64,000 bases of DNA from Macrostomum lignano (lineage: Eukaryota), in NCBI GenBank assembly GCA_002269645.1, contig NIVC01002520.1, positions 1 to 64,000 of the forward strand, given 5' to 3'. The notes below the pieces were generated by a model. The model was given only the letters and a program-made list of their open reading frames with translations. It did not search any database and was not told where the DNA came from. The position numbers and the translations under genes were made by a program. Positions 38,070 through 57,400 of this stretch are shown in pieces; within the stretch, counting starts at the first letter, position 1, and each line of letters starts with the position of its first letter.

Positions 38070-38143
38070 TTATAACCGCATGTGCCAATCTGCTGTAAAG
38101 CAAACGCCATTTCTTCCAGATTTTTGTCTTTGTATTTGACGAT

Positions 38144-38277
38144 AGTAGTAGGGGAAATGTGGACTCTGCCGCAGGAATTTCCGTGGGAAAACCACGGGCC
38201 TATGTGTGTAAACATAGCGCCTATGTAAATGCATTGGTGGACTCTGCCGCAGGGAAAGCCACGGAATTTCCATGGGG
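38144..38277 (+). repeat. Maverick left TIR
   Basis: Matches the reverse complement of 52908-53041 at 131 of 134 nt. Confidence 0.97.
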
Positions 38278-39138
38278 TGGGGGGTCGGAGAGCGAAATAT
38301 ACGGGCTTTTCATATTACCGATTCCAGAACCAGAATCGGTTCGAAGCTTTTCATATTGTCTGTTCCGTCTTCATAGTCGGTTCCAGAACCGTGATCCGAT
38401 TCTGGAATTCGGTTCGAGAAATTTTCTCGATCCTTTGTCGTATTTCTATAGAAACGAAAGGACGAATTTGAAATAACATTTCAAACATTTCAAAAAGAAT
38501 ACTAGTTTCTAGATTTTAGATAGACATGTTTTTATCCTTTAAGAAGTAGACAAAAATAGAATAGAAAAATTCGACGCTCTTCATTTTCCTACTACTCGAT
38601 CTTCAATGAAAAAAGCCGAATAGAGCTCTATGTAAATGGATTGGTGGACTCTGCCGCAGGGGAAAGCAGCATAAGTTCCTGGGAAGCCCAAAACTGATTC
38701 TCTAAAAATAGTAAAAAACTTCTCTAGTGTACATTAGCCATAGTTAATTGAGAATTGGGTGAACCTGGCTTCCGATCTCCACAATATTTAAACTTTGTTG
38801 GCAGTGGAAATACATAGTCCTATGTTCATGAGTTCCTCCGCACTTTTGTACGAGTCTCGCAAATTTGACTGAATTTGTTGTGAAAGTGAGCTTGCAAAGC
38901 GCCGTTTATTGCCTTGTTATTGTTTTTCTTGATACTGCTGATTTGGCCGCGGGGAAGTGGGGTGCAGGTCTGGGGTGGAGGTCTTTAAAACTAACTGATG
39001 CACGGGACGGGGGGAATGTTATCAGTTTTATTATTATTATTGCTCAATAACGGTAAGAAAATAATTAGTGCATACACATATGTAACGTGTAAACATATCT
39101 GTATGTGTACATATAGGCGATATTGCCTGGTGATTTGA

Positions 39139-39148
39139 ATATAAGGAC
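39139..39148 (+). promoter_or_regulatory. TATA-like ATATAAGGAC upstream of the leftmost Maverick ORF
   Basis: 102 nt before ATG 39250; an identical 10-mer sits at the other end of the element. Confidence 0.4.
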
Positions 39149-39249
39149 TGAAAAATTCTACTGAGCCATTAAAATATATTTTGTTGAGATTTAAACGGAC
39201 TTCGAAATTTCAAATTTTCACAAAAAACCCCTTGATTAAATTTTAAACC

Positions 39250-40250
39250 ATGAGCCATTCTCGGTGCCCATCCTACGTTCATGAGGTGTGTGTCACCTGC
39301 AATATTAGTATGCTCGGTGGACTAAAGCACCATGTAGCGAATGAAGGCTGCAGTGTCACCCGATGGCTACTATGCCATGAATGCCAGTCCGTTGAGCTCT
39401 TCACCGTTAGAGGCCAAATCAAAAGGCATAAAAATCATTCGACTGTTAATTGGAGCTCTGCTGAAGACCGCGAGCAGGCACGCATTACTGCTCTGGAAGT
39501 TGCACGTCAAGAGGAACGCAACAGGGCGGCAGAACGCATTCGAGAGCCGGTGAGCACTTTGAGTCAAGTTATCACGAGCTTATGCGGCCGAGTAACGAAC
39601 ACTGGTGACCAGCCCAACGCCCAGCCTGCTGCTGCTTCTGCTGCTCTACTCGACGGTGATGTCGGAGCTCCCCTGCTTGATGCTGCTGATGGAGGTGGCA
39701 CCCCTGACTTCGAGCTGAATGAGCTGGACACCGCTTTCTTCGAGAACCTCGATGGTGAGCCTGAAGCACAGGAGCAGCAAGAAATGCAACAGCAGCAGCA
39801 GCGGCGTGCAATCCCTGTTCCCGAAAAAATATGGAGCGTGCCAGGATGCTGGCAGAAGTCAGCCTGTCCGACGTGATTCGCGATATGGACTCAGGCCCTG
39901 CGCCTCCACCACCACCACCACCGACTGAGGTTCAGCCTGCGGCCGAAGTCAGCCTGTCTGACCTGATTCGCGATATGGACTCAGGCCCTGCGCCTCCACC
40001 ACCACCACCACGGACTGAGGTTCAGCCTGCGGCCGAAGTCAGCCTGTCTGACCTGATTCGCGATATGGACTCAGGCCCTGCGCCTGCACCACCGCCACCA
40101 CCGACTGAGGTTCAGCCTGCGGCCGCTAATGAAGTGCAGCAGCCAGCACCTCTCTGCATCCAGCTGGTTCTGCCCAACAGTGTTACGGGTGAATATTGGA
40201 TTGACTTGGGAGGGGCTTTCCGTATTCGCCTGAGCAATTCTCAATTCTAA
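39250..40250 (+). CDS. Maverick accessory protein of unknown function (~333 aa): Cys/His-rich N-terminus, coiled coil, 3 x 30-aa repeats
   Basis: ORFs 39250-39876 and 39831-40250 join if one A is added to the A6 run at 39824-39829. Confidence 0.65.
39855..40124 (+). repeat. 3 x 90-bp coding tandem repeat (EVSLSDLIRDMDSGPAPPPPPPPTEVQPAA)
   Basis: Units start at 39855, 39945 and 40035. Confidence 0.95.
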
Positions 40251-40864
40251 ACTAATGATTCTAATGTACCAGTCGTTAAATATTAAATTAGCAAACATTC
40301 TGTGTTGAATTAAATTGCGAGATGATTATCTGTATATTGCAAAAGTGAATAATATTTATTTTTCTTTTCAACATCTCATTGCTATTTTTAAAGTTCATAT
40401 TTATGCAGGCAGTGCGCGTTGATCAAGCTGTGCTTGGGTGTGAATGCAGATTGGGTTTGATTCTGGTTGGGTTTGCAATCTCCTTCTTTAACTTGTGCTT
40501 CTAATAATGTAGCGTATCATTGCTTTTTTAAAATATAAATTTTAAAGCGCAATGAAGCGCTGAATTTTGGAAAAGTTTGCAGCTTTGAGTTATTTTGAAA
40601 TATTTTTAGAATTCGTTTTATAAGACCCTTTTATTAAACCCTTTTATTAGACCCTTTATTAGACCCCGAAATTTGACACGTAACGACAAGACCCGAAGTA
40701 CAACTTTCGAAAATATGTACACTTAATACGAGCGTATATCCACAAATTAGGGATTTAAATTTACTTTTGCAAGAAAAAATAATTTCACAAATATGTATTT
40801 CAGCAAATTTCCTCATCTAATTCTCATCGAAAATGCTCTAAGCCGTGTCATCAACCGAACCGAG

Positions 40865-43800
40865 ATGGCTTCTTCGAGAGACACTTCATCATCATCATCA
40901 GCAAGTGATCGGCCGCTTGAGTCTACCAATTTTGCTATCGAAATCGAACCAACCAGTGAGTCAATCCAATGTGATTAGTAAAGCCAGTAAAGTAGACTCT
41001 TCCCTCTATAAGTACAAGAAAAAGTAGTCATAAAACCCGATTCCTGATTCGCCGATTCACCGATTCCCGATTCACGGATTCACCGATTCCCGATTCACCG
41101 ATTCACCGATTCACCGATTCACTGATTCCCGATTCACCGATTCACTGATTCCCGATTCACCGATTCACCGATTCCCGATTCACCGATTCACCGATTCACT
41201 GATTCCCGATTCCTGATTCACTGATTAGCGATTCACCGATTCCCGATTCACGGATTCACCGATTCCCGATTCACCGATTCACCGATTCACCGATTCACTG
41301 ATTCCCGATTCACCGATTCACTGATTCCCGATTCACCGATTCACTGATTCCCGATTCACCGATTCACCGATTCACTGATTCCCGATTCCTGATTCACTGA
41401 TTAGCGATTCACCGATTCCCGATTCGCCGATTCCCGATTCACTGATTCCCGATTAACCAATTCCCGCACCATAATGAGGTGGAATTAGGAATATGATTTA
41501 TAAATTTTAACTGTCGAGTGAAACGCGTACATCCAACAACATGCTAATTCATGCAGGCATTCAATTCAGCTCGGCTATTCACGCTAGTGCGCATGATGAC
41601 ACGCTGCAGGTCAGACGCTTCACTCCAGCATCAAGAGATCTCGAGCCATTTCATTTTTTATCATCAACGAAGTTTGCAGTGCTACAGGCTGTTGAGATGA
41701 GATTCGATTCATCCGAGAATAATTCTATTCGAGCGCAGCTCAAGTTCAACATCAGAATGGTGAGAATCAAGGAAGCTGCGGTAATCAATGCAGAAGATAA
41801 GTGGATCGCATGCGGTCTTGAGCTTCTCTCTGATCTAAGAGATTTTGAATTGTGGTGGTTGCAGCAGTTTTCTGAGTTGGAACGCAAGATTGATGCCTAC
41901 AATTCAAATGGGAGCGGTTGGATAGTTGAGCAAATCAACTATTTTGATCTGTGCTCTGCCCTCACTGATCGCATTCGCTACTATCGTGGACGATGCGCGA
42001 ATTTTACTTTGCCCAATCAGCTGGCGGTTAAGAAGGCCATAATCAACCCACCGAGCGATGGAAACAATTGCTTTCTGTTTGCCTGTCTCGCTTACCTGCA
42101 CATCAGAGATCCTGGTGTGATGAAGTCTTGCCATCGACTAACAACTTACAGCAGATGGTTGGATGAAATCGATCTGAGCGGCATCGCACTACCAGTCGCA
42201 ATTTCCGATTTAGACGTTATAGAGGAAAATAATTCCGAAATCTGTTTCACAGTTTTTAGCTGGGAAGATGATGAGGCCTATGTCATTCGCCAGCCTCTTC
42301 CTGGGATTTGTGCCTCTCGCAAGGTTATTCCTCTACTCTTGCTTCGCAACTCCAGCACCGATGATGCTGATGATGATGGTGGTGGTGATGAGAATTGTGG
42401 GACTGGACACTGGTGTGCAGTTTCGAACCTGGACCGGCTCCTGAACAGCAAAAAAGGTCTGAGGAATCGCAAATGGTGTGAGAAGTGCATTTCTCCGTTT
42501 CGATCCCAGGAAGAGTTGGAGCAGCATCGAGACAGCTGCAATCCTCAACTGAAACCAGCCATTATGGAGCGCATGCCTGATGCAAGTAGCAACACAATGC
42601 AGTTCATGGCTTGGGAAAAGACAATCAGTCCCCCATTTGTTGTCTACGCAGATTTTGAAGCTCTGAACACCCCACGTGAACCAGTGGAGTCTGAAAGAGA
42701 AGTTACTGTCACCAAGTTAACTGAGCATGTACCTGTAGCTGCTGGCTACATTGTTATTCCAAGAGAGGGTATGAGCAGCAAAATTCTGAGGCCGAGTGAG
42801 GATGTTTTCCTCTGCAGCGGACCCAATCCGAATTCTGTCGTGAAACAGTTTTTGGCCTCACTCGAACGTCTTGCTCGTGAAGTTTATGGTTGGAATACCG
42901 AGTTTAGTCATCAGATTGCTGACAGAAACAGAGATGACAACAGGCGCAGCTTTCAAGATGCCCCACAGTGCTATTTATGCAATGCAGTGTTTATTTCATC
43001 TTCTGACAAGCACTGGGATCACGACCACCTCAGCGGTGAATACAAGGGTGCTGCCTGCGCTTCGTGTAACAAGCTTGCTCGGCTAAAACGGCGATTTTTG
43101 CCAATAGTTTTCCACAATCTTCGCGGATATGACCTGCATTTGATTTTCTCAACTGCGCTGGGTGACATGACTGGTTGGAGGGTGAGCGTCATCCCCCAAA
43201 CTGCCGAGTCGTACCTCTCCATGAGGGTCGAGTTCCAGATTGATGAGTATGAGAAAGATGGCGTAAAAAAGCCCCTGTTTTTCACGCTACAATTCATCGA
43301 CTCACTGCAATTCCTACACAGCAGTCTATCTCAACTTATTAAGAACTTGCCGGAGGACAACTGTCCCATCACTAATGCGATGCGATCAAAGTATCCAAAT
43401 CTTTCAAGCGATGTACTGTTTAGTAAGGGAGTTTTCCCTTATGATTATCTCTCGAATTTGAATGTGCTTGATGATCGCCAACTACCAAAAGTAGAAAGCT
43501 TTTTTAACCGACTCACCAACAGCCACTGTACCGAGGCGGAGTATCGGCATGCGCAGAAGGCCTGGACTGAATTCGAATCTACAACATTGCGCGATTACAT
43601 GCTCTGCTACTTGGAGCTGGACATCAGGCAACTAGCAGATATCTTTGAGGGTTTCGAAGGCTGAGTTTGCAGGAAGACAAGCTAGATCCGGTGCATTTTG
43701 TGTCAACTCCAGGCCTATCATTCGCTTCTGCACTAAAGTCTTCTCAAGTCAAGATCGAACTGCTAACTGACCTCGAGATGTATAAAATGTTTGAAAAGGA

Positions 43801-45294
43801 ATTCGGGGTGGAATGTCTTTTGTCAATGTACATCATGTCCAGAGCGAAAGTAGCGATGATGATAATGAACCAGCAGGTAGGAGTTTACTGGCTGTTGATG
43901 CTAATAATCTTTACGGTCATGCGCTCACAATGCCCCTACCTGTTGGTGGCTTTCGCTGGCTCAGTCAAGAGGAGCTCTGCTCATGGTCCGAGTGCCGCTT
44001 TCTTTCCCTGGATGATGACGCTCCAATCGGCTACCTTGTCGAAGCGGATTTGCTCTACCCAGCCGAAATCCACACGGCAACGGAGGATCTTCCATTCGCC
44101 CCAGAGAAAAGGTGTCCGAATTTTGAAGAATTTCCGCAGTACATGCGAGAATTATGGGTACTGCTTCAACATGACAATGATCATTCTCAGCATCATCAGC
44201 AGCAGCAGCCCGACGCGAACACGACTGAGAATCCTACCGTTGCGCGCTACCGTGGAGTACAAAAATTAATGCTCACATGCCACAACAAGTTTTCCTATGT
44301 ACTGCACTCGTCTGCTCTCCGATTCTATCTATCGCACGGAATGAAGTTGCATGGGCTCCACAGGATGATCGAATTCAGGCAAGAACCTGTCTTCGCGGAC
44401 TACATTAAGATGAATAGCGAGAAGCGCTCTATGGCGAAAAATGATTTCGAGAAGGATTTCTATAAACTGAAAAATAACTCCCTGTTTGGCAAAACAATGG
44501 AGAACGTGCGCAAGCGGCGGGACATCAGAGTGTGCAGTGACAAGAAAAAAGCCAAGACTGTTTCTTCTCAACCAAATGTCGCATCATTCACAATCATTAC
44601 GCCGTCACTCAGCATCTTTGAGCTTCAAAAGCGCGAAGTAACTCTTGATCGCCAATTTTCATGGGGCAGTGTGTTCTAGATCGCTCCAAGATCATCATGT
44701 ATCGACTTTACTATGACAAAATAAAACCCATGCTAGAATTCCGTGATGGAGCAAGAGTTCGAGTTTGCGGTGGCGATACAGACTCGTTGTTTTTGAGCTT
44801 AGAGAACCTTAGTTTGCAGAGAGAAGTGCTGCCAATCCTGCATGCCGAAGGCCTCTTGGACACCTCCAATTTTCACTAATCATCCTCTCTTCTCGAATCG
44901 GCTAAAGGCCAAGCTAGGCTGCATTAAAGATGAAGCTGGTGGACTGCAACAGATTGAGTGGGTGCTGCTAAGGCCCAAGCTCTATTCTTTCCTCGCTGAA
45001 AGCTCGGCGGCATGCAAAGCAAAAGCAAAAGGCATCCAACGAAGCGTGCTGAAGAATGAAGTCTCCCACGACGACTACGTCAAGATTTTCAAGGGGGCTT
45101 CAAAGCTGTCGCTCACTGTTCGTCGAATTGGAAGTGAGAAACATCGCGTTTTCACCATTGAGCAACGTAAGCTCGCTCTCAGTATCTGGGAGGACAAGCG
45201 AGCGTGGACTGGCTCGAATTCAAGTCTTCCGTTCGGCCACTTTCAGCTGTTAATCAGGGGTAGTCCGAAAAGGACAGCGGACTGCTTAGAGTGA
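40865..45294 (+). CDS. polB: Protein-primed family B DNA polymerase (pPolB); putative 5' exon 40865-40955, main exon 41557-45294; four frameshifts
   Basis: GSGW and KKAIIN..D.NCF N-terminal region, ExoI YADFE, endonuclease-VII-like CYLC...HWDHDHLSGEYKGAACASCN, ExoII FHNLRGYD, KGVFPYDY, DANNLYG, KLKNNSLFGKTMEN, GDTDS, KLYS, KAKGI. Frame breaks at about 43653, 43795, 44652 and 44874. Confidence 0.93.
41036..41460. repeat. Tandem array of 7/8-bp GATTC-core units (GATTCCC / GATTCACC / GATTCACT)
   Basis: Read directly; a higher-order duplication of about 176 bp is marked by TTAGCG at 41225 and 41401. Confidence 0.95.
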
Positions 45295-45386
45295 TGCTTT
45301 GCACATCTGTGTAACCTTGGCGTTGAAATTTATTGACTTTTACTTATGTACTCCATGAATTGTTTCAGTGGTTTAATTAATCTGAA

Positions 45387-45465
45387 TGATGATGATGATG
45401 ATAATGATGGATGATGATGATAATGATGGATGATGATGATAATGATGGATGATGATGATAATGAC
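45387..45465. repeat. (GAT)n-type repeat in the convergent spacer of the Maverick
   Basis: GATGATGATGATAATGATG units. Confidence 0.85.
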
Positions 45466-46049
45466 AATGCTGGAACGAATAGAGCCAATTCAGTTAGTTA
45501 CATATTTGTAGTCTCTAAGCAACTAACTGAACGTAACATTTTCGAGTTGAGTTGTTCCAGATTTATTTCAATACGAACTTGTGAAAGCCATGTTGGAATA
45601 ATTTGCGGCATATTGGTCTGGCTTTCCCCTTTTTTATTATCCTTGAATTTTTGCACAATTGAATGAACTGAGTTACTGTCCTTTTTTATCTTTGCTAGCT
45701 TTGCTACTCATATTTTTTGTAACCATTATCCAATGATTATCTGAAAAATATTGGCTTCCTTTTTCATTTCTGCTAGTTCTTGTTCGTTTTTATTTGTCTT
45801 AGCAGTGCATAATCTGAGTGATGGGTGTGCTTTTTTTCTTGAGTTGGTTGTGGTCTGATTAAATTTTCTATACTCAAACTAATATTGCGATTTCAGTTAT
45901 GAAAATAAAGAAAAAGTCGATCGAAGTCTGATTTTCAGGTATATTGATTAAAATGCACGCATCTTAATACGTGGTATATGCATGCAAGATTATTATATTT
46001 TTGTTCAGCTGTCGTCTTTTTATTTAATTGTTGAAACATATGGTTATTA

Positions 46050-46613
46050 TTAGCACAGAAAACGGACAAGCAAGGAAAAGTCGGAAATTAGCATGCTCAT
46101 TGTTTTTGCACCACTGAGAACGAATGAGCCATTGTGAAAAAGCAGGCATTTGCAGAAGCTTAGTTTGCAGATTAAAGCAGAAAATGATTCTGGCTCATAT
46201 TGAGCATTTGGTAAAGTGTTCACAAGATTAGCGAGGGGAAGTGCTCTGCACAAGTCAATTTTCCCATGCGCAGTAATAGTTTTAATCCGCACATGCACAG
46301 TTTGATGAGGCAGCAGTTGAGCAGGCACTCTGCGATGCAGCATAGCCACGAAGCGACGAGCGGCCCTGACTGAGGCCGAGTAGCTCCGGGCGCCACAGAT
46401 ACTCAGTTGTCCAGTCGGATAGAGCAATAGAGTCACTCTGGGACTCCGCATCCTCTTGATAAGCACTCGGGGCCAGACGGGGCGATAGATGACATGAGCC
46501 ATGCTGAGAGCCAGTTCCCGCAGAGGCAACTGGGCACCCCTGTCTCCAGCAAGTCTCAGATCCACGCCGCCGACCAGATTGGTCACTCGCAGGGCTGTCG
46601 CAGGTGTACTCAT
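46050..46613 (-). CDS. TATA-binding-protein (TBP/TFIID)-like protein encoded by the Maverick (187 aa)
   Basis: Two TBP repeats: LRVTNLVGGVDL...YRPVWPRVLIKRMRSPRVTLLLYPTGQLSICGARS and IKTITAHGKI...QYEPESFSALICKL...LLFHNGSFVLSGAK. AATAAA at 46018-46023 (minus strand) follows the stop. Confidence 0.85.
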   Translation of the reverse strand: MSTPATALRVTNLVGGVDLRLAGDRGAQLPLRELALSMAHVIYRPVWPRVLIKRMRSPRVTLLLYPTGQLSICGARSYSASVRAARRFVAMLHRRVPAQLLPHQTVHVRIKTITAHGKIDLCRALPLANLVNTLPNAQYEPESFSALICKLSFCKCLLFHNGSFVLSGAKTMSMLISDFSLLVRFLC

Positions 46614-46630
46614 TTAGAGAGTCCTTTCTG

Positions 46631-47127
46631 TCAGTGGTGCTGTCTTTGCGAGCTTTTGAGTGGTGCGGGCACACCTCGCTTCTTAAGTTGATACAGAACT
46701 TCGGTTTCAGCCAGTTGTAGTACAGTAATACATTTTTCACTGCACAACCAGTATCAGATGCTTGAATCAAAGGTGATCCCAGATCCTCTAGGTTGTACAC
46801 CTGTCTGCCAAGCAGCTCAGTCAGAAAGATGGACTTTTTCACCCCGCTTGTCCAGGTGGGACCGTAAGCAATGTTTAGAATGTCATTAGCCAAATGCATG
46901 TACGGTCGGGATCCATCTGTCCACTTGAAATGATGCAAATTCTTTGAGAGCTTTCTGTAATGTACTTGCATCTCAGGTGAGATTCTGTCCCATGAGAACG
47001 GAGAGGCGTACACGTGATGAGTGATATGGTAACTGCCAGCCCGGACTTGGGCAATGGCCAGCTCCTTCACAACGAAATCTCTGCTCGATCTCTCGCGTGG
47101 GAAGCCTTGGAAGTCAATATAGTTCAT
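46631..47127 (-). CDS. Maverick DxQGF...KELA protein, predicted 3'-5' exonuclease-like fold
   Basis: MNYIDFQGF...VVKELA...HHFKWTDG...VYNLEDLG...CAVKNV pattern. As assembled the ORF runs to 46282; the end given assumes one missing base. Confidence 0.55.
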
Positions 47128-47139
47128 GATCGGATGGTT

Positions 47140-47862
47140 TCAAGACGCAAGATGTCGGGAAGCCGACTCAGTTCCCCTTCTTAAATAGTTTTTTTTCCTG
47201 CTCAGGTGTAGCCAGGCTCTCCCACTCCCGAATCCCTTAACTGTATGATGTGCAGGGGTGGCCTCTGGAGAAACAGCCGGTTTAGAAATTAGCTGCCTTA
47301 CTGACTTTCCTATAGCCGAAGCTGGGATGTTAAGCTTTTTGTCTTGAAGCAATGAGACAAACTCACTCCAGCCTACCGGCTCGCTGGCACATTTCGAATC
47401 CCTCACCGCACTGTGAAACAAATCCAGGATGTTTGAGGAGGGTATTGTCTTCCCAGAAATTTGCGCCTCGCCATTTTCGGACACCTGAATCAGAGAGGGA
47501 TTGCCAGATAGGATGGCCCATAGACTGCGGGCTCTCGCTTTAAACTTCTGCGGCACGGATTGGGTGATCTTTTCCCCCCAGCTGCTTGGTGCAATATCTG
47601 TTTTCAGCATCTTTGCATCACTCGCAGGTACCGCACCATCCTTTCCAGTCCGCTTGCGCTTGACCAGCAAACTCTTCATCGCATCATGGTACATGGCAGC
47701 TTTCACATCGTCTGGGCAATCCTCGGCAAGCAAAATATCATTGCATTTCCTCTGCGCATATCTCACAGCAGTGTCCATTTCAGACTCGACTGGCTTCAAA
47801 TTCTGTGTGAGCATGTCGTACTCTGACTTGGGGATCAGAACCATTTCTGAGAACTTATTCAT
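47140..47862 (-). CDS. Conserved Maverick protein (PW-like), 240 aa
   Basis: EMVLIP, VPQKFKARARSL, GE..ISGKTIPSSNILDL, EPVGWSEF...NIPASAIG pattern typical of this Maverick family. Confidence 0.75.
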   Translation of the reverse strand: MNKFSEMVLIPKSEYDMLTQNLKPVESEMDTAVRYAQRKCNDILLAEDCPDDVKAAMYHDAMKSLLVKRKRTGKDGAVPASDAKMLKTDIAPSSWGEKITQSVPQKFKARARSLWAILSGNPSLIQVSENGEAQISGKTIPSSNILDLFHSAVRDSKCASEPVGWSEFVSLLQDKKLNIPASAIGKSVRQLISKPAVSPEATPAHHTVKGFGSGRAWLHLSRKKNYLRRGTESASRHLAS

Positions 47863-48172
47863 TTTGCTTCTTTTTCTTCACTAGCTTTATTAGAATGTAG
47901 AGAATTTTGATAAAACCCGTATTTAGCAGATCCGCAGTTCTTCTATGTGTAGAAATTTTGCGGATTATTTGCTTTTGCTTCACCAGCGCTGCCTTTTCAG
48001 TGAGTGAGAACGACAAAGTGTTTTGCAATAGGTTGTAGCAGGCCTCAATGAGAAATTCACGTACGGCTTTTGGACCCGCTCTGATCAACAGACGTTTAAA
48101 GCTGATGGAATATTTCGGTGACGCGAGAACATCAAACAAACTTTCATGTGAGTCGAATGTTTCCATTATCAT
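47855..48172 (-). CDS. Small conserved Maverick basic/amphipathic protein (105 aa)
   Basis: LLIRA...FLIEACYNLL...KQKQIIRKI pattern; overlaps the next start by 8 nt. Confidence 0.65.
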   Translation of the reverse strand: MIMETFDSHESLFDVLASPKYSISFKRLLIRAGPKAVREFLIEACYNLLQNTLSFSLTEKAALVKQKQIIRKISTHRRTADLLNTGFIKILYILIKLVKKKKQNE

Positions 48173-48219
48173 TAGTGTTGCAGAATATAGAGCAAATGGC
48201 GAAATCTCGGCTGTTATTC

Positions 48220-48873
48220 TTAAGTGTAAACAAGGTGGGGTCGCTGATTGGGCAGGATTCGAGCCCGGACGCGCAGCTCATCAGGGGTGGAAGGGTGAAA
48301 ATCCAGGAGCAGGTAGGCTCCCCTGCCGTGCGATGTCACGTGCTTGAACACTGACAGCAGAAATCCGGGCTTCTCAGCAAAGCACTGCCTGCCCAGCGCT
48401 GCAATCTGCAGCTGGTCTCTGGGGTTCTTCATGATCACAAAGTACATCGCATTCAGACTCATTGTTCGCAACTCCTTCCCTTTAAAAAATACATTTTGGG
48501 TGAGCATAACCAGAAAGCAGGGCAAATGATGGGCAATTCCAGTGAAAACATTTCGCATTGCAGCAGAATTGGAAGTTTCTTCAATCAGGTCATCAAATAC
48601 AACCAGGTCATTGGGTCTCAGTGCGGTCTCGATACTGCTGGGAAATCCCTGCTGCAGGTGCACGCCGAGACTGCTGAGCTCAGAGTGTGCTGCTTGTGAA
48701 ATCCCGTAGTACCACAGAACTCTCCCAGGCTTCACATCAAACATTACATCCTTGTATTGTATCAGATGTTTCACGAAGGTTGTCTTTCCTGCATTTGTAG
48801 GCCCGCTGACAATCATGCAGCTTCCCTGTCGCAGGCGCACATCATAACAGTTTATCCGCTCACGTGTTTCCAT
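48220..48873 (-). CDS. FtsK/A32-like DNA packaging ATPase (217 aa)
   Basis: Walker A GPTNAGKT, Walker B LVVFDD, LTQN, PRD..QI..LGRQ, YLLLDF; uninterrupted. Confidence 0.93.
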   Translation of the reverse strand: METRERINCYDVRLRQGSCMIVSGPTNAGKTTFVKHLIQYKDVMFDVKPGRVLWYYGISQAAHSELSSLGVHLQQGFPSSIETALRPNDLVVFDDLIEETSNSAAMRNVFTGIAHHLPCFLVMLTQNVFFKGKELRTMSLNAMYFVIMKNPRDQLQIAALGRQCFAEKPGFLLSVFKHVTSHGRGAYLLLDFHPSTPDELRVRARILPNQRPHLVYT

Positions 48874-48899
48874 TGCCTGTTGAGCTAAATTCTTGATTT

Positions 48900-49424
48900 T
48901 TAAAATCTAATTAAATTTCTTTTTCTTAAGCAACTCTCAAACCTTTGCAGCATTCTCTCATTCAAGTGGCTCTGCTGATTTGCATGGAGGTGCCGCAGAA
49001 CCCACTCAAACGAGCGCTTGAAACGAAACTTTTGATAGGCAAACAAGAGACAGAACAAACCGCATTTAGCAGAGTCACAGCTCTGAATTCGATTCACATT
49101 GCTACGTAAGTAGAATGGAGAATACCAAAAGGATTTCAGTGCTCTGTGAATGATCTCTAAAGTGCTGGAGTCCCAGCCCAGAGAGTTAAAGAGTTCTATG
49201 GAATTCTCCTTATCAGCATAACAAACCACCCAGTGACCGAAGGATGAGCTGTACTGAAGCAGAAAGAAAATAAACTTACATCGAGATAAATTTCTTTTGA
49301 GAGTTGCTCGCTGAATAAAGTTTAAAGCATAAGATGTTTTATTTATTGAATTCAAGACAATAATTAAACAGTTATTTTGTGGCAAAAAGCTTTTAGCCAG
49401 TTGAGGCAGTTGAAAAGCATCCAT
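48900..49424 (-). CDS. Adenain-like (C5) maturation cysteine protease (174 aa)
   Basis: GHWV, FNSLG (usually F/YDSxG), IQSCDSAKCGLFC. Confidence 0.88.
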   Translation of the reverse strand: MDAFQLPQLAKSFLPQNNCLIIVLNSINKTSYALNFIQRATLKRNLSRCKFIFFLLQYSSSFGHWVVCYADKENSIELFNSLGWDSSTLEIIHRALKSFWYSPFYLRSNVNRIQSCDSAKCGLFCLLFAYQKFRFKRSFEWVLRHLHANQQSHLNERMLQRFESCLRKRNLIRF

Positions 49425-49447
49425 ATTAGCGTTGCGCCAGCGTACTC

Positions 49448-49588
49448 CTAGGATGGAAAATCTAACAGAATCTCCCTGTGCTTGGTGACCTCAATCAGTG
49501 AGTCATACAGGCACATAACAATCAGAGATACAGGCTCCTCCAGGGCCTGTCGGAAGCGAATCTCCAGCCGCAAATTGCCCTCCTTCTG
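49448..49588 (-). pseudogene. Major capsid protein (double jelly-roll/hexon) C-terminal remnant, 46 codons
   Basis: A frame not in the ORF track reads QKEGNLRLEIRFRQALEEPVSLIVMCLYDSLIEVTKHREILLDFPS*, matching the Maverick MCP end pattern G.LRLE..F..AL...V..IV......IE....R....D. The stop lies 24 nt before the protease ATG. Confidence 0.85.
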
Positions 49589-49919
49589 TCCTAGACCTCC
49601 CTTTCTTAGGTTTATTTCGCCCTGACTGGCTTCTTTTCGGTGATTTCTCCGTCTTACTCTTTTTCTTCTTTTTTGTCTGCTTCTTACTGCCCTGTTTGAC
49701 TAGTCGCTGCTTTGGTCTGTTTCTATTGCTTCTGCTGTTGCTGCTGCTACCGCTGGCGGTGGTATGGGCTGGCTTTGATAGCGATATTGACTTTGTGGAA
49801 GCTTCTGGAGGAGGCTGGTAAGTCATGATTCCTGGAAAACTCCCACAGCCATAGAGCGCCGGCTTTTGGCTTCCTGCCAGAGTCCCTGAATACTGACGAA
49901 TCAGCTGTTGGTAGTTCAT
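49503..49919 (-). CDS. Basic core-like (pVII-like) protein, 3' end truncated/fused at the deletion
   Basis: Y...Q...LYGCG N-terminus containing an adenain consensus (L)xGx-G, then a Lys/Arg-rich tract. The ATG overlaps the minor capsid TGA (ATGA). The last ~30 codons are MCP sequence read out of frame. Confidence 0.6.
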   Translation of the reverse strand: MNYQQLIRQYSGTLAGSQKPALYGCGSFPGIMTYQPPPEASTKSISLSKPAHTTASGSSSNSRSNRNRPKQRLVKQGSKKQTKKKKKSKTEKSPKRSQSGRNKPKKGRSRTEGGQFAAGDSLPTGPGGACISDCYVPV

Positions 49920-50743
49920 TGTATTAGCCTTTCCCGAATATGAACTGTGAGCAGAACAGGGCTGCTGCTCCGAGCAGTCAGTGAGTAGCCAAAGATGTCA
50001 CGCAGTTGAAATCTAATGCCATGTAGAAAATTAGCTTTCTGAATCGGGAAGAAAATTGCTTTCTTAAACACTTTGCTCATGTAGCTGCCCCATTCGACAT
50101 CGGATGACATGCTCACAGTTCGCAGCACGGAGTTCCAGTTACAGTTTGTTCGCTCCACAATGCTGCAGTGCAAGTTGATCAGGTTGGTGGGCGGACAACC
50201 GATGCAGCAGAGTGACACTTGCCGTCCGGGTGGGATCTTCACAGGCTGGTTTCCGAATCCCAGCCACTGCAGAATTTTACTTGATGGAAGGAACAATTCT
50301 GCTCGAGCCGTGTTGTTGAGCACTACCGTTCTCAACTCTTGGATTTCAAACTTTATGCCAATATCTTTAGCGCTGCTCCGCCCCATTAAACCGGACTCAT
50401 CAGCTTCCATTTCAGACTCCCTTTCGCTCATTGCATCGAAGAACAGTGACTCAGAGTTGGCCAGCAGCTCATTCAGGCGTTCCACCAGTTCCTCCACTCT
50501 AGCAAAGCGTCCGGGTTGAAGAACCAGGGCCTCATGCTCTCTTCCATCTGAGACAGTGAAGCAGTAAGGCTCGTCAACATTGAACCATGCAGCAGGCAGA
50601 TGGATTTCAGCCAGACCTGCCTCATAGTCCACATTTCGATCCAAGTAAATAGATGAAGGCAGGTGAAAATGAAAGTCACTAGGAGTACCTTCAGCATTTT
50701 CGCTACAAATGATGATGCTTCTCATAGTTGGGAATGGCTGCAC
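49916..50743 (-). CDS. Minor capsid protein (penton, single jelly-roll; 275 aa)
   Basis: F.FHLPSSIYL...YEAGLAEIHLPAAWFN and C-terminal FFPI...IRFQLRDIFG...VLLTVHIR. Confidence 0.85.
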   Translation of the reverse strand: MQPFPTMRSIIICSENAEGTPSDFHFHLPSSIYLDRNVDYEAGLAEIHLPAAWFNVDEPYCFTVSDGREHEALVLQPGRFARVEELVERLNELLANSESLFFDAMSERESEMEADESGLMGRSSAKDIGIKFEIQELRTVVLNNTARAELFLPSSKILQWLGFGNQPVKIPPGRQVSLCCIGCPPTNLINLHCSIVERTNCNWNSVLRTVSMSSDVEWGSYMSKVFKKAIFFPIQKANFLHGIRFQLRDIFGYSLTARSSSPVLLTVHIRERLIQ

Positions 50744-50755
50744 AATGTCGGTATC

Positions 50756-51823
50756 TTACACTTTTCTTAAGTCCTTCTCATCCACCCAGTCAGTGGACTT
50801 GTAGCCGGCCCACTTGACGAGATATCGGATCTTACCCTTCCGCTTCTCAGTCTTCAGAACCTTCTCGATTACATACAGCCGCTGCGAGTCCGGAACAGCT
50901 TGCAGCTCATGCTCGTGGAAGAGGCCTCTTATGTCTTCCCCCTTCATGTCTCGAATCCTGTACATGTAGGGATAATGCTTTGGTGCCCTAGACACTATGG
51001 TGTACACCTCTTCGCTCCAGTTCGCCTTGTATCCCTTCCTGAAGAGTCTGGGTGCATTGGAAATCCGCACTGATTGGTTTTCACAGAACTTCGGTTTTCT
51101 CAGTTTCTCAACTGTCTCAATCGCTTTCCCATCATAAAGGTTCATCCACACTTCAGTCTCGTTTGCTTTGCTGACATTCATTGGTGTAGTCTTGATGCTT
51201 CTGTGGAAAGTATTGTTATAGGACTTGACCAGTTTAGGCAGCACATCAAGCCATTGTAGAGTGCTGTTGTGAGTAAAGTAACGCCACATCTTGCTTTTTA
51301 AAGTTCGATTCCATCTTTCAATTATGGCTTCTTTGTGCTCACTGCTAGTTGGAAACGCCAGAATCCCCCGGTCTATGCAGAACTGGCGAAAAATTGCGTT
51401 GACAAACTCCTTTCCCTGATCTGTGCGGACAGTGCGCGGCTGCCGCTTTGAGCTCTTCAGCATGCTCTCAAACGCAGATTTCACTTCTGCCGCGCTCTTA
51501 GACTTCAGTGCTCTGGCCATTGCAAATTTAGACAAAACATCAATGCAGGTGAGAATGTATTTATGCCCGCGATTATACTTTGCAAATGGAATCATTTCCA
51601 CCAGATCCATCTCCCACTGATCATCAATGGCTCTTACTATTATTGGCGCCCTTGGAAATCGTACTCTAGCTGGCTTATGCAGAGTGTGTACTGGCTGCTG
51701 ACTTAGCCACTGCTCAATGCTCTTGACTCCAATATGCTCGCCTCTTTTTCGCAGTTCAGGTTGCAGTTTTGAAGAACTGCAATAGCTCGCTGGCTGGTTT
51801 GGATTGAAATAAATTTTTTCCAT
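50756..51823 (-). CDS. int: Retroviral-like (rve) integrase with C-terminal chromodomain (355 aa)
   Basis: KIYFNP..PASY, DDQWEMDL (D1), RTDQGKEF (D2), IIERWNRTLK (E), chromodomain YVIEKVL...YLVKWAGY..DWV; intact from ATG 51823. Confidence 0.95.
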   Translation of the reverse strand: MEKIYFNPNQPASYCSSSKLQPELRKRGEHIGVKSIEQWLSQQPVHTLHKPARVRFPRAPIIVRAIDDQWEMDLVEMIPFAKYNRGHKYILTCIDVLSKFAMARALKSKSAAEVKSAFESMLKSSKRQPRTVRTDQGKEFVNAIFRQFCIDRGILAFPTSSEHKEAIIERWNRTLKSKMWRYFTHNSTLQWLDVLPKLVKSYNNTFHRSIKTTPMNVSKANETEVWMNLYDGKAIETVEKLRKPKFCENQSVRISNAPRLFRKGYKANWSEEVYTIVSRAPKHYPYMYRIRDMKGEDIRGLFHEHELQAVPDSQRLYVIEKVLKTEKRKGKIRYLVKWAGYKSTDWVDEKDLRKV

Positions 51824-51992
51824 TTTCGGAAACAAAGAAACATTTTTATTTTTAGGTTTTCTTAAGACATTGAAAATGCATAGCGCATGTGAAAGCAAGC
51901 ATATATATTTTTTTTCAAACAAAGAGATGGAAAGCAGGTCTGGATAAATAGCTCGTAGCACAGAGTTTGTCTCAATGTCAGAGGGTCTGCAA

Positions 51993-52757
51993 TCAGTCGA
52001 AGCACGGCCTGGGCAGCTTCATGGCATCCAATCTGCGCAGAGCGAATGGCGGCTGCTTGCGTTTCCTGGCGTTCTCAGCGGCGGCTGCTTGAGCTCGGAA
52101 CTGGTACCAGACTGGGTCCTCTTGCAGATCAGTGTCCTGCCGAGGAATCGCTCCAGCTGCAGGCTTGGTCAGTTGCAGAGGCGTTGAAGTGGCAAACGCT
52201 GTGTCGATTTGCAGATTGGATGGCATGCCTGCCTCGCCAGCAGCAGCAGCAGCATCGTCCTCCGCCTTCACTACCGGCTTGGTCTCTTCCGCGTTTTCGC
52301 CAGCATCGTCTTCATTTTCGATGCTGTCGGAGGAAGATCCCGACTCCAGCTCGTATGCATCGGAAATCTCACGTGGAGCCGATAGCTGCTCGTCGATCCA
52401 ATCCGCGTACTGCCACAGCTTTCGCCACAGCGGCGGTGTCAGCGGCACGGTGTTCCGCTTAAGAAACTCGTCGCAGCAGTCCTCCGGCAATCGCTTTAAC
52501 CAGATAATGCCGTTTTTCACTTCGATGAACTTATCGAAGCCGAGTTTGACAACCTTTGGCTGTTTGTCCAAGGCCGCCTTGACAAGCGATCGCTTCAACT
52601 CCTTGAGCTTCTCCCACTGACGGATGTTCAAATTGAAGCCGGGGACTCCAGGTTTCAAACTCGCAGTGCTGCCATGTCGGTAAAATTTTCTGATAGCAAT
52701 GAACATAACTCCTTCATACTCCTGTATTTGGAGTTTATATCCTTCGCCGATGTCCAT
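51993..52757 (-). CDS. PC4/Sub1-like ssDNA-binding / coactivator protein with two tandem PC4 domains and an acidic low-complexity tail (254 aa)
   Basis: Domain 1 DIGEGYKLQIQEYEGVMFIAIRKFY...KPGVPGFNLNIRQWEKLKE matches the PC4 pattern; domain 2 KLGFDKFIEV...VPLTPPLWRKL...WIDEQL is a diverged repeat. Confidence 0.78.
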   Translation of the reverse strand: MDIGEGYKLQIQEYEGVMFIAIRKFYRHGSTASLKPGVPGFNLNIRQWEKLKELKRSLVKAALDKQPKVVKLGFDKFIEVKNGIIWLKRLPEDCCDEFLKRNTVPLTPPLWRKLWQYADWIDEQLSAPREISDAYELESGSSSDSIENEDDAGENAEETKPVVKAEDDAAAAAGEAGMPSNLQIDTAFATSTPLQLTKPAAGAIPRQDTDLQEDPVWYQFRAQAAAAENARKRKQPPFALRRLDAMKLPRPCFD

Positions 52758-52832
52758 GACTTAAACTCTAACAGAAAAAAAAATCTCGTTGAAAAAAAAT
52801 TCGATTTTTCATGAATCAAAGAGATTTTTTTG

Positions 52833-52887
52833 GTCCTTATATAGACTAAACCACTGCAGCAGACATACAGCAATAGAAAAACATTGG
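52833..52887 (-). promoter_or_regulatory. CCAAT plus TATA-like ATATAAGGAC upstream of the PC4-like ORF
   Basis: CCAAT at 52883-52887, (T)ATATAAGGAC at 52833-52843, 76 nt before ATG 52757, next to the right TIR. Confidence 0.45.
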
Positions 52888-52907
52888 CCTATGTTCTCTC
52901 ACTAAGG

Positions 52908-53041
52908 CCCCATGGAATTTCCATGGCTTTCCCTGCGGCAGAGTCCACCAATGCATTTACATAGGTGCTATGTTTACACACATAGGCCCGTGGTTTTCCC
53001 ACGGAAATTCCTGCGGCAGAGTCCACATTTCCCCTACTACT
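52908..53041 (-). repeat. Maverick right TIR
   Basis: Matches the left TIR at 131 of 134 nt. Confidence 0.97.
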
Positions 53042-53874
53042 GACGATTTACTTTGAAAGTCAAACAAAAGATTGACAGCTGGATGAGAATTATAATGGGG
53101 TAATGCTGTCTATCCGCAAAGCTTTGCAGGAAATCACAGGCGACTTTTCTTTCACTTTTTAGCAGTGTGATGACAATGTTTGCCTTGACATGACGGGAAT
53201 AAGTTTTTTTCGAGCAAACTTGCGAGAAATTTGTTTGGCTTTGCTAGAATCACGTAGAGGTGACATATGTTTTTGCATAGAGATGGCGTAGCTTTTTGGG
53301 CGACTACCATCATATTATACCAGCCGTTAAGGTTGTTAACGAGAAGCGAAGTTTAATATAACGATTTGTTTACGGCTGTAGCACCCCAACAACTATACTT
53401 TGTCAACACGGCTACTGCTACTGGTACTGGTGCTGGAGCCCTAAAGACGCCATTGTTACCATCCAATACGGAATTCACATCGGGATGAAATATGTCGTAG
53501 TAAGAAAGTACGCTTTGGACACCCTGGACCCAGGACAACTGGGTACCCTGGACACCAATAATAACAACAAAATACGTTGTCAGCCAGTCACAAGCGTATT
53601 AAGAGAGGCAAAGACAATGTCACAGGGCGCGTTTCAGGGCCTGGGCGCGAACATAGGCCGCACCGCTGGCAGTATCCGGGGCGTCAGCATCAGCATTGTT
53701 CCGCAGTGGCGAAATTGACACATGTTAACCAATAGACTAATTGATAGACTAAATTGACCAATTAGCACCAGTGGACACCGGATGTTCACAGATTCACTAT
53801 CCTAGTTATCACAAATGTCCACCGCAAGCCATTTTGAATGGGTTGACGCTTAAATTAGCTCGTACAATGGTATT

Positions 53875-54152
53875 AATAACAATTATTATTAATAATTAAT
53901 TATTGATTATACCTGCTCCGATTGGGCCAGGTGTGCAACCGACAGCTCAGCCGCAGCTATTGCGCGGCGCATCTGAAGGCTGCCGTCAATTACCCCAGCT
54001 AATATAATGCTGGCACCCATTTTACAGCTGGGTGAACTGAAGCAATGCAGAGTTAAGTGTCTTGCTCAAGGACACCAATTTTTCCAGTGGGATCGGAAAC
54101 CGAACCCCCGATCTTCAAGTCTTGAGTCCGACGCTTTAACCACTAGGCTAAA
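53875..54152 (-). mobile_element. CORE-SINE copy with internal deletion
   Basis: Reverse complement of the 34491 copy, lacking about 70 nt of the middle; (AAT)n tail. Confidence 0.85.
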
Positions 54153-54446
54153 AATGCTAATAAGTTTACCGACTTAACACGCAGCTTACTTAACTACTCT
54201 AAAATATTATCTTCTTAGTAAGGTACTCTTTTCTACGATCTTTCTTGTTAAAAAAGAAAAAAGTTAAGAATGCCTTTAGTATTTTTCACTATTCGAAGAA
54301 AATGCTTAAAGTTCAATAAGCCGAGTACGGTAGACAATCGGGCTGATTGGAATTAATGATGTATTTAATTTTTATTAAATTTTCGCTCAAATCAACGCAA
54401 ATGATAACCATTATAACTAGAGGTCTACCGCATCATAAAACTACTT

Positions 54447-57400
54447 TTAAGAAGCTGCCACGGCTTTGCTTGACGCTGATTTTCTAGGCCGACTGGTTCC
54501 GACAGTCTTTTTCCGACCTGCAATACGAGCAAAAAACTAGCATGTTAGGCGGAATAGAAATATGAGAGGTGAGATCAGACTTTAACAGCTATGACTCGTG
54601 TGTTATCCACTGTTGACATCATTTTAATTTTGGTTCTCTTGGTTTGGCTAAGATGTACAAAACAGAGACTGCGATTAAGTTTTCCTGCCTACGCTTGTAA
54701 GATATCAACAGCCCCCATTTTGAGCCGTGGCATCTCAGCAACTCCCCAATACGGCATCTCAGCAACTCCCCAAGACGGCATCTCAGCAACTCCCCATTGA
54801 GCCATAGCAAAATCCAAAACAACCGCATGCATCTAGCAAACAAGGGGTCTCCCATTGCTTCTAGTTCAGATAGACATGTACGGCAAGAACAATAAGCACT
54901 CACCAGTCATGGGCACCAACTGATCCAACGAGTAAGCCACCCGTAGTTTGTCCTCGCCAGCAAGCTTGGCAGATCCACGCAACAGTTGAATCCGCGCAGC
55001 CGAAGCGGCAGTCGCCGTCTCAAAGTTAATTAACGCCAAACGACCATCTGAGGCCATACTAAGGCGTTTTGCTTTCAATCCATTATCGGCTAGAAACTTT
55101 AGCAGAGTGGATTTCTTTGTGCCCTGCAGTAAGTTGGCTACAATCAGTCTGGATTTCGTTCCACTCCGTTGCATTTCGCTATCATTTGATGAAGCCACCT
55201 TCCGGTGCCCGTAGGTCACCGTGGGCCAGTCGGGGTCCTCGGCAGCGGCTGGCCAAGCGGCCAAATCTGCTGCGCAAGCGGCTTCGGTCTCGTAGGCGGC
55301 CACGGCAACACCGGAGCCGCGACGCTCCAATTTGGTGCAGCGGGGCAGGGCGAGCAGCAGGCGGGAGTCGGTCATGGCTTTGTTGACGCCTGTCAGCACC
55401 AGGGTGCGCCTGTCAACCTGTGTCGGGAATGACATTGTGGGCGGCAGGTTTTATAAAATTACTGAAAGCTCATAAAGAATTGTATATGGGGTTGTAGCCT
55501 AGTGGTCACGACTTGAAGGTCGGGGGTTCGTTTCCCGATCCTACTCGGAACAATTTGTGTCCTTGAGCAAGACACTTAACTCTGCATTGCTTTAGTTCAC
55601 CCCAGCTGTAAAATGGGTGCCAGCATTAGCTGGGGTAATTGAGGCTGTGTGTGGCGACCCCCCCCCCCTCCCAGTCCTTGGACTGTACAGCCGTGCACAG
55701 CCTTCAGATGCGCCGCGCAATAGCTGCGGCTGAGCTGTCGGTTGCACATCTGCCCAATAAGGCAGGTGTAATCAATTATAATTATTACTATTACTACAAT
55801 ACCTAACGCCAAAACCTGCAGTTCTGAAGCTTTATTTGCAACTTATCTAAATAAGACACAATTGAGACTCTTGAAAACACTTTCTACAAGCAGAAAGTCA
55901 CAGATTGACACAGAGAGTACTTCACAGCCAAATTTAGACACTTGAGCATTAAAATAAGCACTAACCAGATGCTTAGGCTTCGGTTTGCCAGGAATTTTCT
56001 CCAGCATCCACGAAGTCTTGCCGCCGCCAACAACGGCGCCCTGACAGCTGAGCACGGCGTCTAAAGCTTGACGCGCATCGGCAAAGGTGATTACTGCGAC
56101 GTTTGGCGCGTGTCGTCCCCTACTAGCGCCGGCGCCAGCTTCCGGGAAGCGAACTCGCTGAGCGCCCGGGGCCAGCTCCAACAGCTGACTAGCGGCGATG
56201 CGACCCTCCAGAGAGGAGACAACAACGCGGCGAGTATTGTACTGGCTGGCAGATATGGAGTCCGGCTGAACCGGCGGAATTGAGGTCGCGAGTTCGCGCG
56301 CTCCGCCTAGAGCTCGACTGCCCTGTTATTGGGTTTGGTTGAATAAGGCATCCTGAATAGTTAACGCTGGTACTAAGACGTTTCAACTAATAGACAATTC
56401 CTGAGAAAAACTGTATAAAAATACATTAAGAAATTTTCTACTAACAGTAGTATTATTTGACATTTTGACAGACCAATAGCAGGGAAGTGTACTAACTTGT
56501 ACTAAGTCTACTACAAAAACAAGTTCAAGAAACTGTGTGGATTACCAATTATTATTAGCCAAATGAAATGATGGAGCCCAAATGTGAACTGAAGCAATGC
56601 AGGCAGAGATAAGTGTTTTGCTAAAAGATACAATTTTTTATTTATCGTATCTCCATAGTGCTTTCAGGAAATTTCGTTTTTGACGCATGATATATATAGG
56701 GTTTTGCATCGCTTCTTATAGATAAAAAAACTGAAGTTGAAGCTTGAAGTTAGCCAGAAGCTACACAATTCAGTTGAATCCGCACACACACACACACACA
56801 CACTCACGTGCAGAACAGCCGCATGCTTCGCAGCAATCTCTGGATTGGCAAATTCGAGAAAGGCGACACCTTTATGGCGACACCGAGCCCGGTTCCACGG
56901 CAGCCGGGCGGCCACAGCCGACGGGCACAGGGCGTACAGGTCAGCTAGTCGGCAGCGATTCGGTAGCGGTCGAATTCGCACTGTGCTGCGAAGTCGGCGA
57001 GTCACGCAGTCAACAATGGCCTTATCTAGACTCGAATTGTCAACTGACTCAGCTTGATTCGTAGCTGCTGCTGCGGCGACAGGCTGCTATGGAAATCAAT
57101 CGAAATTGAACAGTTTTCAGGCCTTGAATAATGATCGGCTGTCACGAGTGGCTGAGATCGCTCAATATTCTATGGCCTAAACAAGTCCCGCGATCATTGC
57201 GTACCGCTTAGAATTGTCTCAAAGGATTGGCCATAGACAATTTTAGAGCTTGGATAGAAAGACTAAAGGGAAGAGTTAGAGGCTATACGGTCGAACATAA
57301 GGCAGGGCCTTAAGGCAGGTTTTCTAAGGCAGGGCCAGATTATACGCATATTTTATATTTACATGTATGTACGAGTATATCCTCAATTGCCTAGTGTATT

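Follow-up and report, generated by a model that had tools for sequence, protein, structure and literature searches.

Genes and borders of the element

The DNA analysed here (the window) is a stretch of 64,000 nucleotides from the flatworm Macrostomum lignano (contig NIVC01002520.1 of assembly GCA_002269645.1). It contains a Maverick/Polinton element that carries genes for a TATA-binding protein (TBP)-like protein and a PC4-like protein. The element spans 38144-53041, ends in 134-nt terminal inverted repeats (TIRs) that are 98% complementary and have AGTAGTAG ends, and is flanked on both sides by the 6-bp target-site duplication (TSD) GACGAT. Besides the TSD and the TIRs with their AG-rich ends, the element has further hallmarks of Mavericks/Polintons, namely a protein-primed DNA polymerase B (pPolB, broken in this copy), a retroviral-type integrase, a packaging ATPase, a C5 protease and capsid genes (the capsid gene being a remnant here), where capsid labels are based on position and likeness without a family match. 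The plus strand carries a left-arm gene followed by pPolB, split into three pieces. The minus-strand block reads, in order, PC4-like protein (254 aa), integrase, probable penton, K/R-rich open reading frame (ORF), capsid remnant, C5 protease, ATPase, ORFs of 105, 240 and 281 aa, and TBP-like protein (187 aa). As an earlier note on this DNA had it, the TBP-like and PC4-like ORFs are uninterrupted, lie inside the TIRs, and are the last and first genes of this block. The features are:

38138..38143: target-site duplication GACGAT, left
38144..38277, plus strand: left TIR, AGTAGTAG end
39250..40250, plus strand: left-arm gene, in two frames in this copy
40956..41556, plus strand: GT..AG intron ahead of the polB coding sequence; one run X8 contig skips it
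41541..45294, plus strand: polB region
46019..46024, minus strand: AATAAA directly downstream of the TBP stop codon, a candidate poly(A) signal for the block
46050..46613, minus strand: TBP-like gene, 187 aa, two lobes
46282..47127, minus strand: 281-aa ORF, last 110 codons shared with the TBP gene
47140..47862, minus strand: 240-aa conserved Maverick ORF, without a box (see below)
47855..48172, minus strand: 105-aa conserved ORF
48220..48873, minus strand: A32/FtsK-like packaging ATPase (P-loop; weak Pfam matches)
48900..49424, minus strand: adenain-like C5 protease, without a box
49451..49591, minus strand: major capsid protein gene remnant (last 47 codons)
49503..49919, minus strand: K/R-rich core-protein-like ORF, 3' end changed by the deletion
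49916..50725, minus strand: probable minor capsid (penton) gene, 269 aa, by position and size, without a family match
50756..51823, minus strand: retroviral-type integrase with chromodomain
51993..52757, minus strand: PC4-like gene, 254 aa, with PC4 domain (3-53), probable second repeat (about 65-126) and acidic low-complexity tail
52908..53041, minus strand: right TIR
53042..53047: target-site duplication GACGAT, right

At 49591/49592 some 1.2 kb has been lost by internal deletion, which leaves the major capsid gene with its final 47 codons only. The polB gene is broken as well, and with its capsid gene mostly deleted this copy is defective.

A diverged TBP family under purifying selection

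The 187-aa ORF matches the Pfam TBP family (PF00352) over two repeats with an expectation (E) value of 4.5e-22, and 34 of its 35 sequence matches in the Protein Data Bank (PDB) are titled TBP or TBP-containing, the remaining one being ECU04_1440. Its AlphaFold2 model, built on a 24-row alignment that includes cellular TBPs, has a predicted local distance difference test score (pLDDT) of 93.4 and a predicted template modelling score (pTM) of 0.83, and the best Foldseek match of the model is human TBP (1cdw, E 1.2e-13, template modelling score 0.82). By this model the ORF encodes a genuine two-lobed TBP with a saddle fold, which bears out the identity proposed in the earlier note.

At least 152 matches to the gene were found in the genome, with 150 of 237 candidates scored, and about 90 of the 150 matches listed are near full length and without stops, at 76-100% identity. 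The window copy belongs to a group that we call lineage A. The TBP of a second group, lineage B, is 37% identical to that of lineage A and has about 40 genome matches. A search with the ATPase found a third TBP-bearing group, clade E, whose more diverged TBP lies on the polB side in seven of the ten elements fetched, the other three being cut by contig ends or interrupted; Pfam recognises TBP in all three clade E proteins tested (two above the cut-off), and their identity over long alignments is at most 20-29%. Four clade E TBP frames that were inspected start at or near splice-acceptor-like sites.

Ratios of nonsynonymous to synonymous divergence (dN/dS) are 0.15-0.26 between the window copy and eight other lineage-A copies and 0.19-0.27 in three further pairs; the element TBP is under purifying selection. 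It is about 28-33% identical to cellular TBP, and the host genome has an intact TBP and an intact TRF2 of its own, with three copies of each. In a quick IQ-TREE phylogeny of 78 of 79 rows (P0150 being dropped) that covers lineages A and B, 11 rows of A, B and similar TBPs fall on one side of a branch with a Shimodaira-Hasegawa-like approximate likelihood ratio (SH-aLRT) of 95, together with one unplaced library protein. This clade lies far from host TBP and apart from TRF2, with long branches; the ten viral-contig TBPs in the tree fall outside it. A recent capture from the host, which the earlier note had considered as an alternative, is ruled out by the copy number together with the distance from host TBP: the gene is old, family-wide and selected (dN/dS 0.15-0.27 overall).

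A protein library of 50% representatives gave five TBP matches below 1e-30, P0009 at 52% among them, and its protein P0019 resembles the lineage B TBP. No relatives of the element TBP were found in IMG/VR or JGI metagenome contigs, and when short divergent library TBPs were checked as Maverick genes, none of their 13 viral loci had the queried Maverick genes.

Repeat 1 carries YRPVWP and LLYPTG, as previously noted. Aligned with host TBP, lineages A and B retain two C-lobe features, the Phe pair and the E-P-E stirrup, along with the Asn of the N-lobe. In the N-lobe, the first Phe column is Pro and the second is Tyr (within Y-P-x-G), and the next strand has mostly Ser/Thr and Cys in place of Val and Thr; in the C-lobe, Thr replaces Asn. 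The set of residues typical of canonical TATA binders, four intercalating Phe and two Asn, is thus incomplete. Within a TATA box, the 3' half is the part that the N-lobe of TBP recognises. In all three clades the first N-lobe Phe column has Pro in it or next to it, and the second falls in Y-P-x-G. C-lobe stirrup glutamates contact TFIIB (PMC7221094); the corresponding E140 and E142 are invariant in ten of ten rows, and the clade E stirrup is D-A-E or D-K-E, with the second Glu retained.

Two observations concern the gene itself. In codons 111-187, synonymous divergence between some subfamilies is several times that of the first lobe, an excess that suggests recombination between subfamilies within the TBP gene. 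Secondly, the upstream 281-aa ORF, whose last 110 codons the TBP ORF overlaps, stays open across the first TBP lobe (46282-46613) for 108-111 codons in lineage A and 130 in B, and an open run of that length arises in 0.2-2% of synonymous resampling trials. Selection on the protein encoded by this overlapping tail was considered and rejected, the values of omega (0.9-4.1) being the shadow of the TBP frame.

A TATA variant before the integrase and virion genes

Most genes of the integrase/virion block are preceded by the 8-mer YWTAAGAA, which is the TATA consensus with G at position 6, and which we call the G6 box. In each of three subfamilies of lineage A, eight of the ten block genes have its core hexamer TAAGAA 37-147 nt upstream (Fisher p 3e-5 to 1.3e-4), with one or two matches elsewhere on the sense strand and none on the antisense strand. 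Two lineage B copies have TAAGAA before 5/9 (p 0.006) and 5/8 (p 0.003) genes, a count that includes one mis-set start coordinate (codon CAT), and the shorter TAAGA before six genes each. An unbiased ranking of hexamers places TAAGAA or the overlapping TTAAGA first in both lineages. Seven of the nine block genes that remain in the window copy are boxed, and an eighth site is orphaned by the capsid deletion. The sites, with one canonical TATA box for comparison, are:

46680..46687, minus strand: CTTAAGAA before TBP, inside the 281-aa ORF (TAAGAA 72 nt before the TBP ATG)
47178..47185, minus strand: TTTAAGAA before the 281-aa ORF
48217..48224, minus strand: CTTAAGAA before the 105-aa ORF
48923..48930, minus strand: CTTAAGAA before the ATPase
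49603..49610, minus strand: CCTAAGAA, which precedes the capsid gene in related copies
50061..50068, minus strand: TTTAAGAA before the K/R-rich ORF
50764..50771, minus strand: CTTAAGAA before the penton gene
51859..51866, minus strand: CTTAAGAA before the integrase
52836..52843, minus strand: canonical TATA box TATATAAG before the PC4-like gene

The published TATA consensus is YWTAWADN (PMC1935006). Among 38 box sites from five non-independent copies, in which positions 3-7 are fixed by the way sites were selected and positions 1, 2 and 8 are free, those three positions fit this consensus in 37, 36 and 38 sites respectively, and the box is therefore a TATA box with G at position 6. The site before TBP leads to the same assignment, since it is CTTAAGAA in lineage A and canonical TATAAAAG in lineage B within the same codons of the upstream gene, making it an element in the position of a TATA box. 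Boxes inside coding sequence are kept as the rare codons TTA-AGA, three or four per copy against 0.45-0.47 expected. The variant is not a feature of the terminal promoters, for which it was also considered and rejected: most of these have canonical TATATAAG or TATAAAAG, and canonical TATA precedes the PC4 gene in eight of the nine copies shown.

Clade E has TATAAG[CT] before 5/8, 5/8, 5/8 and 6/7 block genes and none elsewhere (p about 1-2e-4), so that a TBP gene and a G6 box co-occur in three clades (A, B and E). In 20 stretches of the distant families C and D, found with a capsid profile, neither TBP nor PC4 was detected, and TAAGAA precedes only 1/12 and 0/9 of their genes.

The shared core invites a different reading, in which TAAG is a late promoter for the RNA polymerase of a helper virus. 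Late promoters of the baculovirus/nudivirus type are DTAAG, virophages share promoters with their helpers, and TAAG is invariant in all three clades. Apart from a single one at -10 in lineage B, however, the boxes keep a distance of about 31 nt or more from the ATG, as TATA boxes would; one of them aligns with TATAAAAG in lineage B; the polB introns and the acceptor-like starts of clade E TBPs point to RNA polymerase II (Pol II); and no helper is known here, none having been searched for. We regard a helper-read promoter as very unlikely.

The host's own machinery is a better candidate for an outside reader. The box could be a weak TATA variant recognised by host TBP/TFIID or TRF2, while the element TBP represses, binds the element's ends or acts as a decoy that draws off host regulators. 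The box departs from YWTAWADN only at position 6, host TBP and TRF2 are intact, and the N-lobe DNA face of the element TBP is heavily altered; in lineage A, moreover, the TBP gene stands behind a box that its own product would need to read. A host preference would hardly explain a uniform G6 in three clades combined with a clade-specific position 7. Also against this reading, the terminal genes retain canonical TATA boxes and the families that lack TBP lack the box. On balance we think reading by the host improbable.

The PC4-like protein

The PC4-like protein matches PF02229 (E 3.6e-6) in a single stretch, residues 3-53, which aligns to host PC4 with a probability of 97.7% and has Tyr in the column of the base-stacking Trp, as does PDB 4usg. 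By these matches domain 1 is a clear PC4 single-stranded DNA-binding domain. The tandem arrangement claimed in the earlier note holds less well for its second half, for which residues 65-126 align to host PC4 over 54 columns (E 0.01, probability 4%) and a look-up with just residues 64-128 brings up PC4 clusters in the Atlas (best 0.87, no more than a lead). Pfam finds this repeat in none of five proteins, the PDB offers nothing relevant and a comparison of repeat with repeat is blank; the second repeat is probable but weak. A single-sequence model of the protein (pLDDT 42) is unusable. The gene has at least 150 genome matches and is under selection, with dN of 0.10-0.35 and saturated dS. A lone broken PC4-like copy, 39-41% identical, lies at G000:C269:376212-376586 (L096), with no other Maverick gene detected nearby.

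The earlier note saw TBP and PC4 as one basal-transcription pair, that is, an initiation pair borne by the element with PC4 as coactivator or promoter-melting factor. The two genes co-occur in 7/9 lineage-A and 7/8 lineage-B copies fetched, both are under purifying selection, they are neighbours in lineage B, and host PC4 is by name a Pol II coactivator. They differ, however, in promoter class, the PC4 gene of lineages A and B being terminal in the element and having a canonical TATA box, and in lineage B they are on opposite strands. PC4 was not detected in 20 clade E stretches that hold seven TBP genes, although a very diverged PC4 could escape, given that a search with host PC4 alone missed that of lineage B and that part of the E ends was covered. 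Host PC4 has a long N-terminal Ser/acidic and Lys-rich region, to which a coactivator-related role belongs, whereas the element protein begins directly at its DNA-binding domain. A protein-primed, strand-displacing replicon, besides, needs a single-stranded DNA-binding protein (SSB). A predicted complex of TBP with the PC4 domains scores 0.18 (mark 0.34), which is neutral either way. The pairing is in our judgement quite unlikely, and these features suggest that the PC4-like protein is likely a separate single-stranded DNA-binding protein and not the partner of TBP. What stands of the earlier proposal of altered promoter recognition is its first component, a diverged TBP, which fits the matching non-canonical box before the structural genes; the joint module with PC4 is not supported.

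Transcripts

The run X8 contig that skips the 601-nt GT-AG intron before polB indicates that the family has spliced transcripts and undergoes spliceosomal processing. In the region 40812-41765, polB has an upstream exon, and this intron lies beside or across a tandem repeat of the GATTCACC type. The minus-strand block is covered by contigs from four studies. The run contigs share 14/14 listed differences (46329-47017) with the L015 subfamily and not with the window copy, and the signal is therefore likely to come from sister copies. Splicing of the lineage-A TBP onto the upstream gene was considered and set aside: no joint is listed and three contigs cross the TBP start unspliced, although contigs cannot show absence.

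These data also bear on whether the motif might be a 3'-end or splice signal of a packed gene block and not a promoter, given that the upstream gene ends at several of the sites. Yet three sites lie 100-400 nt inside the upstream coding sequence and one in the intergenic gap before the integrase, AAG is a poor acceptor, the pyrimidine tract is missing at some sites, and no joint is listed at any of them. We regard a processing signal as the most improbable of the explanations considered.

A proposed late-gene switch

With moderate confidence, we propose from these sequence comparisons that the selected, diverged TBP reads the G6 box before most integrase, capsid and packaging genes and recruits host TFIIB and Pol II, as a late switch. 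Host TBP would start the terminal genes at their canonical TATA boxes. The element TBP would be made early in lineages B and E, whose TBP genes have, respectively, a canonical TATA box and a position on the polB side, and by leak or read-through in lineage A. It would then bind the G6 box, and its retained stirrup would recruit host TFIIB and Pol II, which would start short-leader transcripts of the integrase, capsid and packaging genes. The PC4-like protein would act early, as an SSB in strand-displacement replication.

A narrower proposal, which we make tentatively and hold to be somewhat less likely than not, is that a single bare TBP core working with host TFIIB and Pol II is matched to a clade-private TATA variant (TAAGAA in A and B, TATAAGC in E), box and N-lobe residues co-evolving. 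This would be the smallest virus-style late switch described.

Several points weigh against the proposed switch. The protease and 240-aa genes have no box, box-to-ATG distances range from 31 to 166 nt, and some sites (TATAAGAA) are one change off the consensus and may be read by host TBP. The lineage-A TBP gene is itself behind the variant box, so that its first expression needs leak or read-through. AATAAA hexamers occur within the block, and nested 3'-coterminal transcripts are accordingly a conjecture. The replacement of Phe by Pro and the missing Asn of the C-lobe could point to a weak DNA binder, and TBP binding, start sites and timing are predictions. No run is recorded as RNA, the RNA nature of the contigs being presumed, and contigs give neither starts nor levels. 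Finally, sites of different subfamilies are not independent, and clades A, B and E probably share ancestry; with C and D distant, the comparison amounts to roughly one phylogenetic contrast, not five, and does not prove co-evolution of box and TBP.

Other features of the window and of related elements

The 281-aa ORF has no Pfam, PHROGs or PDB match, and no family or structure match was found for it or for the 240-, 105- and 269-aa ORFs; no relatives of the 281-aa ORF or of the ATPase were found in IMG/VR. We take the N-terminal motif of the 281-aa ORF to be DEDD-exonuclease-like and the 240-aa ORF to be PZ-like. Part of the TIR repeat unit recurs a third time inside the element, at 38628-38683. 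Outside the left TIR, a host ORF (37308-38069) begins at a distance of 75 nt; it has a weak PAN match and what are presumably C-type-lectin-like motifs. A dispersed repeat family has several copies in both orientations (24081-24273, 34492-34764, 53925-54153 and 55547-55762).

In families C (L077, L078, L093, L094) and D (L082, L085), most start codons follow an A-run, often as TAAAA(A)TG, which we take to resemble a poxvirus late promoter. Family C also carries a D5-type primase region, an F5/8 lectin domain and an Eco47II-like endonuclease. Clade E elements (L103:6872-8290, L107, L098, L114) have deoxynucleoside kinase and dUTPase genes, and in L103 TBP and the kinase share one open frame.

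Relation to known systems

The element resembles described Mavericks, Polintons and adintoviruses (PMC8502044) in its TIRs, 6-bp TSD, pPolB, integrase, ATPase, adenain and capsid genes. The earlier note had asked whether TBP-bearing Mavericks were already in the literature, and in part they are, since the map of a MELD virus in Fig. 5 of Starrett et al. 2021 (PMC8502044; preprint 10.1101/697771) has, by its legend, a gene labelled TBP-like. The label comes without analysis in the available text, which does not say which element is meant and makes no mention of promoter, selection, function or PC4. What is notable here is the TBP together with its box, and not its pairing with PC4. Our literature search, with subscription journals and Repbase outside its scope, found no Maverick TBP with a promoter box and no promoter logic for Mavericks. 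TBP is described in mirusvirus-like elements (PMC10675990), a PC4 label in the accessible part of PMC11662393 is unrelated, and the available portion of 10.64898/2026.06.19.733378 has no TBP.

The closest functional parallel is found in herpesviruses, where EBV (Epstein-Barr virus) BcRF1 and HCMV (human cytomegalovirus) UL87 belong to the same group of viral TBPs as ORF24 of KSHV (Kaposi's sarcoma-associated herpesvirus). ORF24 acts at a TATT late box (PMC12529657). Both systems have a virus-encoded TBP fold and a short non-canonical TATA variant before structural genes, with ordinary TATA boxes on the early genes (putatively early in the Maverick) and the use, predicted for the Maverick, of host Pol II. 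According to the part of PMC12529657 that we draw on, however, ORF24 is larger, with N- and C-terminal domains, and acts in a six-protein complex, whereas the Maverick TBP is a bare 187-aa core; and ORF24 keeps all four Phe but not the glutamates that contact TFIIB, with direct binding to Pol II, whereas the Maverick TBP keeps the glutamates and is changed in the N-lobe Phe pair. The herpesvirus late complex has five further viral factors and depends on DNA replication, and in the Maverick the ORFs next to the TBP gene gave no family match. The likeness is one of function only, and beyond the shared TBP fold we claim no homology.

With cellular TBP and TRF proteins (PF00352; PMC7221094) the element TBP shares the two-lobed saddle, the C-lobe Phe pair and the TFIIB stirrup glutamates. 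Unlike them it forms a long-branch clade, has Pro and Tyr in the N-lobe and Thr for Asn in the C-lobe, and is mobile, multi-copy and, in lineages A and B, intronless. TBPs of nucleocytoplasmic large DNA viruses (NCLDV) and mirusviruses are likewise viral TBPs of double-stranded DNA viruses, and viral TBPs are usually accompanied by viral TFIIB (PMC7221094). Those genomes are much larger, whereas this 15-17 kb element shows no TFIIB or polymerase for transcription among its ORFs. Compared with PC4/Sub1 (PF02229), the element protein agrees in domain 1, including the Tyr shared with 4usg, and differs in its probable tandem repeat, its acidic tail and its lack of an N-terminal region.

A late switch made of one protein and a defined 8-mer is directly testable in a transgenic flatworm that is amenable to RNA interference. 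If true, it would support a viral early/late programme in Mavericks, provide a convergent parallel to the herpesvirus viral TBPs, and offer natural altered-specificity TBP-promoter pairs for studies of TATA recognition. Should the codes prove private to each clade, a single animal genome would hold several orthogonal TBP-promoter codes.

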